A stretch of 64,000 nt of DNA, from assembly GCA_964655705.1 (NCBI GenBank), contig CAZZPP010000003.1, positions 37,427 to 101,426 of the forward strand, read 5' to 3'. The notes beneath the pieces were generated by a model. It did not search any database. It was not told where the DNA came from and saw nothing but the letters and a program-made list of their open reading frames with translations. Each line of letters begins with the position of its first letter. Positions within the stretch are counted from its first letter, which is position 1. The position numbers and the translations under genes are program-made. Positions 38,466 to 43,904 of the stretch are shown here, one piece after another. Origin of the DNA: an uncultured Candidatus Saccharibacteria bacterium (GTDB lineage: Bacteria > Patescibacteriota > Dojkabacteria > SC72).

Positions 38466-39005
38466 ATGAATTTCAAAGTCGGCTCAAAAGTATTCTATCC
38501 ATCTCACGGTGCAGGTTGGATTAAAGATCAGAAAGAAATCGAATTTAATGGTAACAAAAAAATGTACTTTGAATTCCAGTTTGTGAACTCATCAATTACA
38601 ATATCTACTCCTTTAGATAATGTAAATAATTTAAATATTAGGAATGTATTCAGTGCAAAAGAGATTAAGGACAAGATAGCGGTATTAAAAAAGACACCAT
38701 ACAAAGATCCAAAGACTAAAGATTTTAACAGATTAATGGAGATATTCAAGAAACTGGAAAATGAAGCAACTATTGAATCTGCAATAGAAACAATACAACA
38801 CTGTAATCACGTTAAAAGAGAAAGAGAGAAAGATGGGAGATTAATCCCTGTATCAATTGAGAATGAACTAGCTAGAGCAATGGGGGACATTGTAGGTGAA
38901 ATAGCGGTAACTTCTAATACCAAATTAGAAACAGCTGGTAAAACTTTCGAAAAGATTACTGGTTTAGAGGCAAAGATGTTAGAGTCTAAGTATTTTGGTA
39001 ATTAG
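38466..39005 (+). CDS. CarD/CdnL-family RNA polymerase-binding regulator
   Basis: FKVGSKVFYPSHGAGWIKD is the RNAP-interacting Tudor-like N-domain. Confidence 0.7.
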   Translation: MNFKVGSKVFYPSHGAGWIKDQKEIEFNGNKKMYFEFQFVNSSITISTPLDNVNNLNIRNVFSAKEIKDKIAVLKKTPYKDPKTKDFNRLMEIFKKLENEATIESAIETIQHCNHVKREREKDGRLIPVSIENELARAMGDIVGEIAVTSNTKLETAGKTFEKITGLEAKMLESKYFGN

Positions 39006-41876
39006 TACATCATCCTGGACTTTTAAGGATATACCATTCTCAATCTGTTCTACTTTCTTCAAATCTTGAATATATATATTCTTTTTAATAATCTCTTTCC
39101 TTTGCTCAATTAGTCCAGATATCTGCTCACTGCTAGTTGCATACTCCAAAGAGATTGGCTCCCCTACTTCACAGCCACTCTCTTTTCTTGCTACTTGTAA
39201 TCCTCTAAGTATCTCATTTAATATCCCCTCCTCTTTGAGTAAATCAGAAACATTGATATCAATACTTACAAAAATATCTCCTGTAGACAAACTCTTTATG
39301 GTTTCTCCTTCTTTAACCTCCTTACTAAATACTACCTCCTTAACATTCAATTCTCCTTTAATAATTTCTAACATAGACTCATCAGAGATTGGAACATATG
39401 CTCTTAGCAATGGTTGTCTTACCTTCAATCTATACTCATCCCTGATATTTAATCCTAGGGAACATATACTTCTTACTTTCTCCATATCCGTTAGTAGTAC
39501 TTCATCAAGGTACTCAACATCCACCCTTGGGTACTCCTCTAAATGAACTGATTCTTTGCCCTCTGGTTGTAATGTAAGATATGCCGACTCAGATATGAAG
39601 GGAGCAAATGGTGCAAGTAGTTTAGATATCTCTACTAACACAAAGTGTAGAGTAGTAAGAGCTTGGATATCTCCATTTACAAATCTCTCCCTTGATCTAC
39701 GTATATACCACTTAGAGAGCACATCAATTAATTCAAAGATATATTTAACACCATTTTGAAGTTTGTATTCATCAATATTTGTTGTAACATCCCTAGTTGT
39801 TTGATTTAGTTTAGAGAGTATCCACCTGTCCATAATATGCTGTGGACGGTAATCCTTAGAATATTCCCACTTAAATTGCTCTTTGTAATTAAGAAAATAC
39901 TTAATACAGTTGTAGTATGGAAGGAGTACAGTAGAGGTAATCTCTTTAACAAATTTCTCACTGAATATGACCTCCTCACCATGAACAATTGGTGAACTTA
40001 AAAAGTAAAGCCTCAATGCATCAGCACCCATGGAATCAATTACTGTATTTACCTCTGGATAGTTACGCTTACTCTTGGACATCTTACTACCATCCGGAGC
40101 CAATGCCATACCATTTACAATTACACTTCTAAAAGATTTTTGATCAAACAGTGCAACACCAAGTACATGAAGCGTGTAAAACCAACCCCTTGTTTGATCA
40201 ATTCCCTCTGCTATGAATTCTGCAGGGTATGTCTTTTCAAATAGTAGACTGTTTTCAAAAGGGTAATGAAATCTAGCAAAAGGCATAGAACCAGAGTCAT
40301 ACCAAACATCAATAACATCATTTACTCTCTTCATATCCCCACCACATTCGCATTTGTAAACAATTTCATCTACAAAGGGCTTGTGAGGATCTTTTAACTC
40401 GATACCACTCTTTTCTTTTACCTCCTCAAAAGAACCAAGTACATCCTTCTTACCACATTTCTCACAAATCCATACAGGTAAAGGAGTTCCCCAATATCTG
40501 TTTCTACTTAACGCCCAATCCCTAGCATCGCCTAACCAGTTACCAAATCTTCCCTCCTTAACATGTCTAGGTATCCACCTAATCTCATCGTTTTCTTTAA
40601 CTAGTAATTCTTTAATCTTACTTACTCTTACATACCAGCTCTTTATGGGCTTGTATATTAGAGGTGTTGCTGTTCTCCAACACATTGGCATTTGATGTTC
40701 ATAATCGTAATGATTGAAAAGAAGATTTCTCTTTTCCAAATCCTCCATTATGTATCTATTTGCCTTTTTGTAAAACATACCTTTAAACTCCGAAATCTCC
40801 TCTTTGAAATTGCCCGCATCATCTAAATAGTCAAACATCTCAATCCCCAGATCAGTCATCAGGAAAAAATCCTCTTCTCCATATGGTGCCTGATGAACTA
40901 GCCCAGTTCCTTCCTCTAAGGTTACATGATTAGCATGTACTACTCTAAATGCACCTTCTTTTCTTTTTTGAGCATAGTATGGGTACAATGGCTCATACTC
41001 CTTACCAACTAAATCACTTCCCTTAATCTCTTTGACTACCTTAAAATCATCATTGAAAATATTCTCCACTAAATCCCTCCCAACAATATATCTCTCTCCC
41101 TTACTCTCAACTTCTACATAGGTAAAATCTTTTCCTACTGCAACCAACAAATTCCCTGGTAATGTCCAAGGAGTAGTAGTCCAGATTAACAAGGATGTAT
41201 CACTCTCCTTAAGTTTTAATTTAACAACAACAGCAGGATCAATAATGGTTTGGTAACCACCCAATGCCACCTCTGAATTTGAAAGAGTAGTACCTGCTCT
41301 AGTAGAGTAAGGAACTACCTTGTATCCCTCATAGAGTAAATCTTTGTTGTAAAGTTCCTTTAAAGACCACCAGACACTCTCAATATATTTAGGGTCCATA
41401 GTGGCATACTCCTGCTCACTGTTAACCCATCTACCCATTCTCTCAGTTAAATTCTCAATCTCACTCTGATATTTCTTTACTGATTCTCTACACAAGCTAT
41501 TGAACTTCTCTACCCCATATCTCTCGATATCTTCCTTCTGTTGGAAACCTAACTCTTTCTCTACCTCATACTCAACAGGTATGCCCTGACAATCCCATCC
41601 TAAACTCCTCTCTACTCTAAATCCTTTCATTGTTTTGTATCTAGGGATGCTGTCCTTAATAACCATGGTAAGTACATGTCCGTAATGGGGTTTGTTGTTT
41701 GCAGTAATTGGACCATCATAGAAGGTAAATTGGTTTTCCTTAGATCTCTGTTCAATACTCTTTTCCAATATCCCTTTCTCTTTCCAGTATTTTAGTATCT
41801 CTTCTTCAACTTTTGGGAAGTTAGGCATACCCTGATCTTTAGATATTTTCAAATCATACATATATTTAAATTTCAA
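38979..41876 (-). CDS. ileS: Isoleucyl-tRNA synthetase
   Basis: The HIGH motif reads PHYGHVLT. GWDCQGIPVEYEVEK, KMSKSKRN and a CxxC...CxxC zinc knuckle are present. Length is 965 aa. Confidence 0.9.
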   Translation of the reverse strand: MKFKYMYDLKISKDQGMPNFPKVEEEILKYWKEKGILEKSIEQRSKENQFTFYDGPITANNKPHYGHVLTMVIKDSIPRYKTMKGFRVERSLGWDCQGIPVEYEVEKELGFQQKEDIERYGVEKFNSLCRESVKKYQSEIENLTERMGRWVNSEQEYATMDPKYIESVWWSLKELYNKDLLYEGYKVVPYSTRAGTTLSNSEVALGGYQTIIDPAVVVKLKLKESDTSLLIWTTTPWTLPGNLLVAVGKDFTYVEVESKGERYIVGRDLVENIFNDDFKVVKEIKGSDLVGKEYEPLYPYYAQKRKEGAFRVVHANHVTLEEGTGLVHQAPYGEEDFFLMTDLGIEMFDYLDDAGNFKEEISEFKGMFYKKANRYIMEDLEKRNLLFNHYDYEHQMPMCWRTATPLIYKPIKSWYVRVSKIKELLVKENDEIRWIPRHVKEGRFGNWLGDARDWALSRNRYWGTPLPVWICEKCGKKDVLGSFEEVKEKSGIELKDPHKPFVDEIVYKCECGGDMKRVNDVIDVWYDSGSMPFARFHYPFENSLLFEKTYPAEFIAEGIDQTRGWFYTLHVLGVALFDQKSFRSVIVNGMALAPDGSKMSKSKRNYPEVNTVIDSMGADALRLYFLSSPIVHGEEVIFSEKFVKEITSTVLLPYYNCIKYFLNYKEQFKWEYSKDYRPQHIMDRWILSKLNQTTRDVTTNIDEYKLQNGVKYIFELIDVLSKWYIRRSRERFVNGDIQALTTLHFVLVEISKLLAPFAPFISESAYLTLQPEGKESVHLEEYPRVDVEYLDEVLLTDMEKVRSICSLGLNIRDEYRLKVRQPLLRAYVPISDESMLEIIKGELNVKEVVFSKEVKEGETIKSLSTGDIFVSIDINVSDLLKEEGILNEILRGLQVARKESGCEVGEPISLEYATSSEQISGLIEQRKEIIKKNIYIQDLKKVEQIENGISLKVQDDVLITKILRL

Positions 41877-42097
41877 ATATTAAACAAAAATCCCCTTGTA
41901 AGAACCAATACATTGTACCAGTTCTTACAAAGGGACGTATATACGTGTTACCACCCTTTTTCATAGTTACATTACTGTAACTATCTTGTGAACCACTAAT
42001 ATGGTTCCTACTCTTTTTCGGGAGTAATCCGTTGGATTCTACTAGTCTTTCTGACTTTCTTTCCACCACTTACCAGTGATATCTGGGTCATTGTGTT
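41877..42097 (-). promoter_or_regulatory. T-box riboswitch leader of ileS
   Basis: On the minus strand the leader has an extended -10 TGGTATAAT (plus-strand 42105-42113) and a T-box core AAAAAGGGUGGUAACACGU. GGG / UGGUAAC bulge / ACGU-AUAU-ACGU / CCC is a candidate antiterminator. A mutually exclusive terminator follows: CCCUUUGUAAGAAC...GUUCUUACAAGGGG then AUUUUUGUUU. It lies immediately 5' of the ileS ATG. Confidence 0.55.
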
Positions 42098-42134
42098 AAA
42101 ATTCATTATACCATATATGTAGTATAATGGGAGG

Positions 42135-43904
42135 ATGAAAAAGAACTGGAATTTAAAACTTCTTTACAAAGATATTACAGATTCTCAGATAGATATTGAT
42201 ATTGAAAAAAGTAAAAAAGAAGTTAAAAGCTTTGTTAAGAAATGGGAACAAAACAAACAGTATCTCAAAGATCCAAAAACTCTGTCTATCGCTTTAAAAG
42301 AGTATGAGGATTTAATGGAAGAGTATGGTATATGTACAAAACCCTCATACTACATCTTTCTTTCTAGAGCAATTGATCAAGAGAATCCCCTATTAAAGGC
42401 TAAAGAGAATCTTTTACATACTACTTGTTTAGAATTAGAAAATAGTATCCAATTTTTCTTACTAAATATCTCTAAAATACCTAAAGAGAAACAGAAAATA
42501 TTTTTAGATTCACCATATTTAAAAATATACAGACACTTTCTTCAAAGTAGTTTCAATGAGGCTAAGTATATTCTTACAAACAAAGAAGAAAAGATTTTTA
42601 ATTTAAAATCTAAAACCTCATACGGCAACTGGGTTAATATGCTCTCAGAGCTCCTTCAGAAACAAAGCATAGGAGTAATTGATGAGGATGGGATAAAGAA
42701 AGAAGTACCGTATAGCGAGATTAGTAAATATCTAGACAGTAGCAAGAAGAGTCTAAGAGATTTTGCAGGAGAGAATTTTTACAAAGTAAACAATCAGTAT
42801 CTTGAAATAGCAGAATATGAGATGAACTCGATACTTGAGAATAAAAAAATCTCTGATGATTACAGAAAAATACCTAGAGTTGATCTACCAAGACTTTTCT
42901 CAGATGATATGGATTTGGATACTGTTGATACACTAAGAAATACAGTAACAAACTCCTTTGATATTTCCCAACGATTCTACAAATTAAAAGCAAAACTTTT
43001 ACAACAAGATGCCCTTGCTTACTATGAAAGGAATGTAAAGATTGGAGATATTAAAGAGGAGTACACTTTTGAAAACTCCTTAGACATTGTTAAGAAAGTA
43101 TTTAGAAACTTAGATAAAGAGTTCTTAGATATTTTAGAAATATATGAATCTCAAGGACGATATGATGTATATCCTAAGAAAGGGAAAGAGGGAGGAGCAT
43201 TTTGTGTAGGAGTGGGAAGTAAATATCCAACATACATCCTTTTAAATCACAACAACAGATTACATGATATATTGACCATAGCGCACGAGAGTGGACATGG
43301 TATTCATACAGAGTATTCCAACAAGCAAAATCCTTTAAATCAGGGCTACTCAACTGCATGTGCAGAAGTTGCTTCTACTTTCTTTGAAGAGTTTGTACTT
43401 GAAAATATTTCAAAAGATTTAAATAGTAAGGAGAAAGATATACTACTTTTTAAATCTCTTGAAGAGGATATCTCTACAAAATTTAGACAGATTGCTTGCT
43501 ACAATTTTGAATTAAGATTACATAATGAGTTTAGAGAGAAAGGTTTTCTTCCTAAAGAACATGTATCCCGAATATTTACAGAGGAGATGTCTAAATACTT
43601 AGGAGATAGCGTATTAAAGGATAAGCATATGGAGTTAGGTTGGATATATTGGAGTCATATCCGCTCTTTCTTCTATACATATACATATGCTAGTGGACTA
43701 TTAATCTCTAAATATTTGCAGAATTTAGTGAAAGAAGATAGAAAAAATATTGAATATGTAAAGAACTTCTTCAAAGCTGGTGATAGTAAATCTCCTAAAG
43801 AGATATTTTTAGATATGGGTATAGATATTTCTAAAAAGGAGTTCTGGGAGAAAGGCTTAAAGAGTATAGAAGAGAAACTCTCATATCTAGAAAAAGAACT
43901 CTAG
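42135..43904 (+). CDS. pepF: Oligoendopeptidase F (M3B)
   Basis: The zinc motif HESGHGIH is present. Length and the helical architecture match PepF. Confidence 0.8.
   Translation: MKKNWNLKLLYKDITDSQIDIDIEKSKKEVKSFVKKWEQNKQYLKDPKTLSIALKEYEDLMEEYGICTKPSYYIFLSRAIDQENPLLKAKENLLHTTCLELENSIQFFLLNISKIPKEKQKIFLDSPYLKIYRHFLQSSFNEAKYILTNKEEKIFNLKSKTSYGNWVNMLSELLQKQSIGVIDEDGIKKEVPYSEISKYLDSSKKSLRDFAGENFYKVNNQYLEIAEYEMNSILENKKISDDYRKIPRVDLPRLFSDDMDLDTVDTLRNTVTNSFDISQRFYKLKAKLLQQDALAYYERNVKIGDIKEEYTFENSLDIVKKVFRNLDKEFLDILEIYESQGRYDVYPKKGKEGGAFCVGVGSKYPTYILLNHNNRLHDILTIAHESGHGIHTEYSNKQNPLNQGYSTACAEVASTFFEEFVLENISKDLNSKEKDILLFKSLEEDISTKFRQIACYNFELRLHNEFREKGFLPKEHVSRIFTEEMSKYLGDSVLKDKHMELGWIYWSHIRSFFYTYTYASGLLISKYLQNLVKEDRKNIEYVKNFFKAGDSKSPKEIFLDMGIDISKKEFWEKGLKSIEEKLSYLEKEL

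Follow-up and report, generated by a model that had tools for sequence, protein, structure and literature searches.

The ileS gene lies on the minus strand (38979-41861) of the window, i.e. the whole stretch of 64,000 nucleotides that was analysed, and a gap of 258 bp separates it from an M3 oligoendopeptidase gene on the plus strand (42135-43904). The product is an isoleucyl-tRNA synthetase (IleRS) of type 2 (archaeal/eukaryote-like), as the best PDB matches were 1ILE, 8WND and 7D5C with 740-770 bits, while the type-1 enzymes 1FFY and 8C9E scored lower, at 305-317 bits. A CarD-like gene is convergent at the 3′ end of ileS. The original prediction had described the neighbour on the other side as convergent as well, and had considered that the hairpin in the gap might be an ordinary terminator of that gene. 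This orientation was incorrect: the M3 oligoendopeptidase gene runs away from ileS, starting at 42135 on the plus strand, and no upstream gene on the minus strand needs a terminator. Since the neighbour is divergent, the hairpin cannot terminate its transcription and the gap constitutes a 5′ leader region.

The extended -10, T-box core, antiterminator and terminator of this leader span 41882-42113 on the minus strand. Leader positions are counted from window position 42104, taken as position 1, and the features are the following:

42113-42105, minus strand: extended -10 element TGGTATAAT, read from the sequence
42067-42095, minus strand: ultrashort Stem I, 29 nt in total, defined by the Rfam alignment and covariation
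42077-42080, minus strand: specifier AUC (Ile codon, 42080-42078) and the purine A (42077), within the apical loop AUAUCA (42082-42077)
42033-42065, minus strand: Stem II, with an S-turn and a variable apical hairpin (helices 40-43/69-72 and 50-52/58-60)
42009-42031, minus strand: Stem IIA/B pseudoknot, with IIA CGG...CCG (74-76/84-86) and the loop UACUC (79-83) pairing with GAGUA (92-96)
41990-42007, minus strand: extra hairpin GAACCA-UAUUAG-UGGUUC (leader 98-115), between the pseudoknot and Stem III
41963-41984, minus strand: Stem III, 8 bp, with the conserved loop AGUAAU (leader 121-142), aligning to the Rfam Stem III
41957-41944, minus strand: T-box core AGGGUGGUAACACG, 12/14 identical to the consensus AGGGUGGNACCGCG
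41931-41957, minus strand: antiterminator GGG[UGGUAAC]ACGU-AUAU-ACGU-CCC (helix A1 148-151/171-174, bulge 152-158, helix A2 159-162/167-170)
41882-41934, minus strand: intrinsic terminator from the terminator scan, a hairpin of 20-22 bp (41934-41892; leader 171-213) followed by the U-tract AUUUUUGUUU
38979-41861, minus strand: ileS, monocistronic, encoding an IleRS of 960 aa with the domains tRNA-synt_1 and Anticodon_1

The extended -10 element was found where it had been predicted. Its TGnTAnAAT motif keeps a fixed spacing of 7-9 nt upstream of the AACAC that starts Stem I in the related leaders, and no -35 element was found upstream of the ileS leader. From the sequence, transcription would be expected to start at about 42097, a few bases ahead of Stem I. 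The two divergent promoters are arranged back to back within 42105-42140, an arrangement kept in the relatives. On the plus strand, the M3 peptidase start codon (ATG, 42135) follows the -10-like sequence AGTATAAT (42121-42128) after only 6 nt, and a GGGAGG directly abuts this ATG with zero spacer; this suggests that the M3 peptidase mRNA might be leaderless or near-leaderless, or that its start is mis-set.

The T-box core had been claimed to be close to consensus, and 12 of its 14 positions are indeed identical to the sequence quoted in PMC11297988. The core AAAAAGGGUGGUAACACGU contains the 13-mer GGGTGGTAACACG (41944-41956), which has no other zero-mismatch copy in the window, and the exact core form UGGUACCGCG occurs in 10 of 28 relatives. 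The antiterminator proposed on this basis was also recovered, its bulge of seven nucleotides (UGGUAAC, 41953-41947) being flanked by helix A1 (AGGG/CCCU) and helix A2 (ACGU/ACGU). Helix A1 and the UGGU are invariant among the leaders and helix A2 covaries, with AU to GC exchanges in 9-10 of them. By analogy with T-boxes, the UGGU appears positioned to pair with the ACCA end of an uncharged tRNA. The usual discriminator base of bacterial tRNA-Ile is A73, with which the invariant UGGU would fit.

The strong competing hairpin was identified by the terminator scan as one of 4 sites in the region, against 0.4 expected, and both its covariation and the U-tract that follows it in the aligned leaders agree with the proposed terminator. 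The 5′ arm of this hairpin opens with CCCU, which is the 3′ strand of the antiterminator helix A1, thus bearing out the shared CCC and making the two structures mutually exclusive. The antiterminator alone was calculated at -5.3 kcal/mol and the terminator at -27.6 kcal/mol (20 pairs) or -33.1 kcal/mol (local minimum free energy fold). As the terminator is far more stable than the antiterminator, termination would be the default state. The fold of the whole leader had a z of -6.1 in comparison with shuffled sequences.

Stem I, which had been expected to fold with an Ile specifier, could be folded, albeit in a much reduced form that the original prediction did not contain: an ultrashort stem without the distal platform for the tRNA elbow. 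It consists of a 3-bp basal helix CAC/GUG (10-12/36-38), a K-turn, a 4-bp helix CCAG/CUGG (19-22/29-32) and an apical loop of 6 nt. The helices are 98-100% paired across the leaders and showed compensatory changes of CG to UA, AU to GC and GC to AU. The K-turn, which was called on the sequence pattern alone, comprises a 3-nt bulge AAU (13-15) followed in the window by G16.A35 and A17.A34. A17 and A35 are invariant across the leaders, whereas position 34 is mostly G but A in the window, so that the second sheared pair is A.A instead of A.G, a point against the T-box reading. The apical loop presents the expected AUC with the following A at 42080-42077. Positions A25, U26 and C27 are invariant both in an alignment of 28 leaders and in a second one of 33, with A or G as the following base, while the two loop bases ahead of AUC vary (AU, AC, UA, CA, AA, UU and CU) and the loop in relatives ranges from 5 nt (CAUCA, UAUCG) to 7 nt. 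An AUC that recognises the tRNA-Ile anticodon and a UGGU that recognises ACCA would be expected to be invariant in this way, amid variable loop bases.

Downstream of Stem I, the S-turn of Stem II is formed by the GAA of GGAAAGAAAG opposite AGUA, both invariant in the leaders and matching the Rfam Stem II motif. The Stem II helices are 100% paired, with compensatory changes of UA to CG, GC to AU and UA to CG. In the Stem IIA/B pseudoknot all 5 pairs changed on both sides (84-86% of cells paired), the pairing being represented by variants such as UACUC/GAGUA, UAGCU/AGCUA and GGUCU/AGACC. Stem III showed changes on both sides in 8/8 pairs, with 98.5% of cells paired in the 33-leader alignment. 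The extra hairpin located between these two elements is outside the Rfam consensus, where it aligns as an insertion, and is missing from six relatives; 94% of its cells are paired and 3-4 of its 6 pairs changed in a compensatory manner. The idea that the ACCA in this hairpin might imitate a tRNA 3′ end and pair with the UGGU bulge was discarded, since the position covaries from A-U to G-C as an ordinary helix pair.

A search with the Rfam T-box model RF00230, proposed as a check of the original prediction, gave a mixed outcome. The model matched 41928-42100 over its full length with a significant E-value (2.4e-9 locally, 3.8e-7 over the 64 kb of the window), but the score of 46.8 bits is about half of the gathering score of 93 and therefore below threshold. 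The low score is explained by the replacement of 74 distal Stem I consensus positions by 4 nt. Eight relatives compared with the same model scored 37.9-57.3 bits (E 7e-10 to 7e-5), so that all nine members tested, with the window leader, are sub-threshold. At the gathering threshold, Rfam returned 11 tRNAs only and no T-box in the whole window. No second T-box was detected in the 64-kb window by the Rfam E-value scan, and a core-motif search returned 2-mismatch matches at chance level; across about 625 kb of DNA from other loci, T-box cores within Dojkabacteria-type loci occurred only at ileS leaders.

Other Rfam candidates in the leader were rejected. A match to the DUF805b RNA (RF02914; 42005-42032, minus strand, 28 nt) scored 20.8 bits (E 0.0015), below the gathering value of 35.6, and covers the IIA/B pseudoknot only; the likeness consists of a short hairpin with the AAAAGAGUAGG tail and is without independent support. 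Matches to SpF19 and to miRNA families were sub-threshold and fall on parts of the T-box or of the terminator. The eleven tRNA genes are distributed singly or in pairs across 1254-63700 (Gly x2, Thr, Leu x2, Glu, Phe, Asn, Gln and Val x2). No tRNA-Ile gene was found in the window or in 33 related loci, and no rRNA gene was found in the window.

The relatives of the window IleRS, with 65-86% identity, belong to Candidatus Dojkabacteria (WS6) bins of the CPR/Patescibacteria, several of them labelled Saccharibacteria; a CPR host is a further aspect that the original prediction had not covered. The same leader was present in 28 of the 32 close-relative loci that include the ileS start (27 distinct sequences) and absent in 4. 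A pattern scan of metagenome contigs added 23 leaders, all upstream of IleRS, and look-ups of IleRS homologues a further 3 leader sequences, one of them from the complete Dojkabacteria genome CP129478.1. Altogether, about 45 related leaders were found in Dojkabacteria-like contigs, each before ileS and with the AUC and purine kept.

Covariation was evaluated on a MAFFT alignment of 28 distinct leaders and on the 33-leader alignment, from which six leaders of a short subtype were dropped and to which more divergent ones were added; this second alignment includes three IleRS lineages. In the former, the antiterminator-state fold with the pseudoknot had 94.3% of cells paired and 29 of 44 pairs compensatory; none of 500 shuffles reached the observed pairing and controls with slid partners gave 35-45%. 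The latter returned 96.2% of cells paired versus 32-44% in the slid controls. For the terminator, 95.3% of cells were paired and 11 of 20 pairs compensatory, with slid controls at 40-54%. These compensatory base changes support the antiterminator fold, the pseudoknot and the terminator.

The leader is not uniform within the group. The short subtype consists of six leaders (L011 2770-2982, L013 2234-2447, L017 2788-2982, L018 2087-2281, L022 2712-2922 and L028 2769-2982), in which both the extra hairpin and Stem III, an element commonly assigned to the T-box discriminator domain, are missing; a stretch of about 17 unpaired nucleotides (CAAAUGAGAAAUAAAUA) links the pseudoknot region to the core, and Stem II and helix A2 of the antiterminator are extended. 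Some ileS genes carry no T-box leader at all, as observed in L004, L005, L012 and L023 (IleRS 73-78% identical) and in L080 (1120-1500; complete genome AP026679.1). The presence of leaderless ileS genes in several relatives implies that, in this group, the riboswitch has disappeared or been replaced more than once.

The metagenome pattern scan also returned T-box-like leaders from unrelated organisms of higher GC content (L054, L060, L063, L074, L075 and L046), which share the Stem II sequence GAAAGAA...AGUAGA and are without the ultrashort Stem I sequence of the Dojkabacteria leaders; L063 contains two T-box cores about 320 nt apart. Four further hits (L051, L067, L069 and L073) appear to match coding DNA by chance. 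The taxonomy of the source bins appears unreliable: L019 (JAVEUZ010000081.1) is filed under Flavobacteriaceae although it has exactly the same leader as the Dojkabacteria bin L015, L032 (JAGVZH010000002.1) is filed as a Woesearchaeota archaeon, and many bins named 'uncultured Candidatus Saccharibacteria' (L001, L002 and others) group with Dojkabacteria by both IleRS and leader.

A comparison of the window with the loci L076 (1501-4461), L077 (1501-4470), L071, L062 and L055 (1159-4092) showed that one syntenic slot, pepF/UDG - leader - ileS - CarD - CofD, holds three IleRS lineages in different Dojkabacteria-like genomes. The three lineages share 33-39% mutual identity and are all of type 2 by PDB comparison, while the flanking proteins are 53-76% identical to those of the window. 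In L076, CarD, CofD and UDG are 68-76% identical to the window proteins and IleRS only 38%, compared with 72-73% for the flanks and 70% for IleRS in L010. The leaders themselves are up to 87% identical across IleRS lineages (L055 versus L010). The same slot with similar flanks and leaders, despite the diverged IleRS, indicates that the riboswitch was retained while the ileS coding sequence downstream of it was exchanged in place. That near-identical leaders precede proteins of 37% identity could also have been explained by each genome having two ileS paralogs whose leaders were homogenised; this was rejected on the basis of synteny, as the lineages occupy the same slot.

Taken together, we propose that the ileS leader is a tRNA-Ile-responsive T-box acting by transcription attenuation, a reading to which we assign a probability of about 85%. 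The analysis established the motifs, a fold backed by covariation, a terminator that excludes the antiterminator, a specifier codon that fits the regulated gene, and the missing elbow platform. The identity of the leader as a T-box, as originally predicted for ileS, is supported by the Rfam E-value, the Ile specifier and the compensatory changes, and we regard it as nearly certain. By analogy with known T-boxes, the leader is presumed to bind tRNA, to sense whether it is charged and to terminate transcription.

According to this proposal, transcription would start just downstream of the extended -10 element and the nascent RNA would fold the short Stem I, whose apical loop would offer AUC to the GAU anticodon of tRNA-Ile. 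The K-turn would set Stem II alongside, so that its S-turn could clamp the codon-anticodon helix in the manner of the Nocardia and Mycobacterium ileS leaders of Class III; Stem I, having no distal platform, would not stack on the tRNA elbow. With an uncharged tRNA, ACCA would pair with UGGU and stabilise the weak antiterminator (about -5 kcal/mol), allowing RNA polymerase to read into ileS. With charged or absent tRNA, the stronger terminator (about -28 to -33 kcal/mol) would take the CCCU and transcription would stop at the U-tract, releasing a leader RNA of about 215 nt.

The combination of a short Stem I with a terminator is mechanistically unproven, because the literature ties transcriptional T-boxes to a long Stem I, and the main alternative arises from this point. 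The short Stem I, apical specifier loop, Stem II and pseudoknot form a module linked mostly to translational control (PMC10482949, PMC7583486), and the leader might be a translational T-box like those of the actinobacterial Class III ileS genes, in which the hairpin would sequester the ribosome-binding region instead of, or besides, terminating. However, the hairpin has the shape of a canonical intrinsic terminator, and a U-tract comes after it in the aligned leaders. Moreover, no Shine-Dalgarno-like sequence was found in its 3′ arm or between the U-tract and the ileS ATG (41861), which lies 21 nt past the U-tract in an AU-rich, unpaired spacer with no GGAGG. The U-tract, the missing Shine-Dalgarno sequence and the 21-nt spacer favour transcription control, and we thus consider transcriptional rather than translational action likely and the translational alternative improbable.

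The leader might also be an ordinary terminator or a structured 5′ UTR without tRNA sensing, its T-box motifs being due to chance or to a decayed relic. The Rfam score under the gathering threshold would agree with this explanation, as would the close relatives that have ileS without such a leader (L004, L005, L012, L023 and L080), but, apart from the lack of a minus-strand gene that would need a terminator, the 14-nt core, UGGU and AUC are invariant and five further helices plus the pseudoknot are kept by compensatory changes. As this conservation extends across leaders whose proteins have diverged to 36-39% identity, it points to purifying selection on the whole aptamer, and a leader without tRNA sensing appears very improbable. 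Finally, a 67-aa ORF with a GTG start (41866-42069, minus strand) appears in the mechanical ORF list and could be taken as, for example, a leader peptide. Relatives differ there by indels of 1-2 nt and by large loop insertions and deletions, the substitutions are paired and compensatory rather than codon-periodic, and the frame would cross the terminator, leaving this coding explanation with a negligible probability.

A search of a limited collection of papers returned none linking T-boxes with CPR, Patescibacteria or Saccharibacteria, although terminator-coupled ultrashort leaders may have been mentioned earlier, for instance by Sherwood et al. in 2015. The short-Stem-I leaders of TBDB were sought only in Actinobacteria and among Rfam-detected sequences (PMC7778990). 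Given this search scope and the sub-threshold scores of all nine members, the Dojkabacteria leaders are probably absent from current T-box catalogues. The tRNA-Ile T-box proposed here is notable for an uncommon pairing of modules, an undocumented phylum and its invisibility to threshold-based annotation. Threshold-based annotation of RNAs misses a whole T-box lineage, and riboswitch censuses of the CPR/Patescibacteria may understate RNA-based regulation in reduced genomes.

A more far-reaching claim would be that these leaders represent a natural terminating T-box without contact to the tRNA elbow (in the sister subtype also without Stem III), conserved across Dojkabacteria and outlasting at least two in-place replacements of ileS; we advance it tentatively and consider it, in this complete form, rather doubtful. 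If true, the elbow platform would not be a kinetic requirement for co-transcriptional tRNA sensing, and the anticodon clamp of Stem I and Stem II would be fast enough. A short decoding module coupled to a strong covarying terminator provides a natural test case for the kinetic argument, and the aptamer of about 165 nt is compact enough to be of use for engineering. Since short T-boxes dedicated to ileS occur both in Actinobacteria and in CPR bacteria, one may ask whether this form is of ancient origin or has spread by transfer.

Among known systems, Class III ileS T-boxes are represented by the structures PDB 6UFM and 6UFG. Class III ileS leaders of Nocardia farcinica, Mycobacterium tuberculosis and M. 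smegmatis were reportedly treated by Sherwood et al. in 2015. Class III, whose representative is the Nocardia farcinica ileS leader, is defined by a Stem I that is short and has no elbow platform of the double T-loop type (IDTM), by an apical loop of five or six nucleotides that holds the specifier, and by the need for Stem II; together with Class IV it "mostly" regulates translation initiation, which is typical and not obligatory (PMC10482949). As judged from the published description, the Dojkabacteria leaders resemble Class III in the short Stem I without elbow platform, the basal K-turn, the regulated gene ileS, the AUC with purine in an apical loop of 5-6 nt that lies within a few bases of the 5′ end, the Stem II S-turn purine string, the IIA/B pseudoknot, Stem III and the UGGN bulge. 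They differ in their expression platform, which is a long intrinsic terminator with a U-tract instead of a Shine-Dalgarno sequestrator/anti-sequestrator, in the conserved hairpin added between the pseudoknot and Stem III, and in the host, a CPR Dojkabacteria organism with 34% G+C instead of an actinobacterium.

The expression platform is shared with Class I (Bacillus subtilis tyrS, ileS of Firmicutes), which the leaders resemble in the terminator/antiterminator switch on transcription, the core and the 7-nt bulge, as well as in the Stem II S-turn, IIA/B pseudoknot, Stem III and K-turn. Published work states that T-boxes acting on transcription generally depend on a long Stem I, whose elbow platform lets them catch the tRNA fast during transcription, and that a short Stem I accompanies translational control (PMC7583486, a 2020 review; PMC11297988, 2024). 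The window leader lacks the long Stem I of Class I/II T-boxes: about 74 Stem I consensus positions are gone, including the specifier internal loop with its S-turn, the AG bulge and the elbow-docking distal loop, the specifier is in a terminal loop, and the score is half of the RF00230 gathering value. By sequence, the Dojkabacteria leaders combine a Class III-like decoding module with a predicted terminator of the Class I style.
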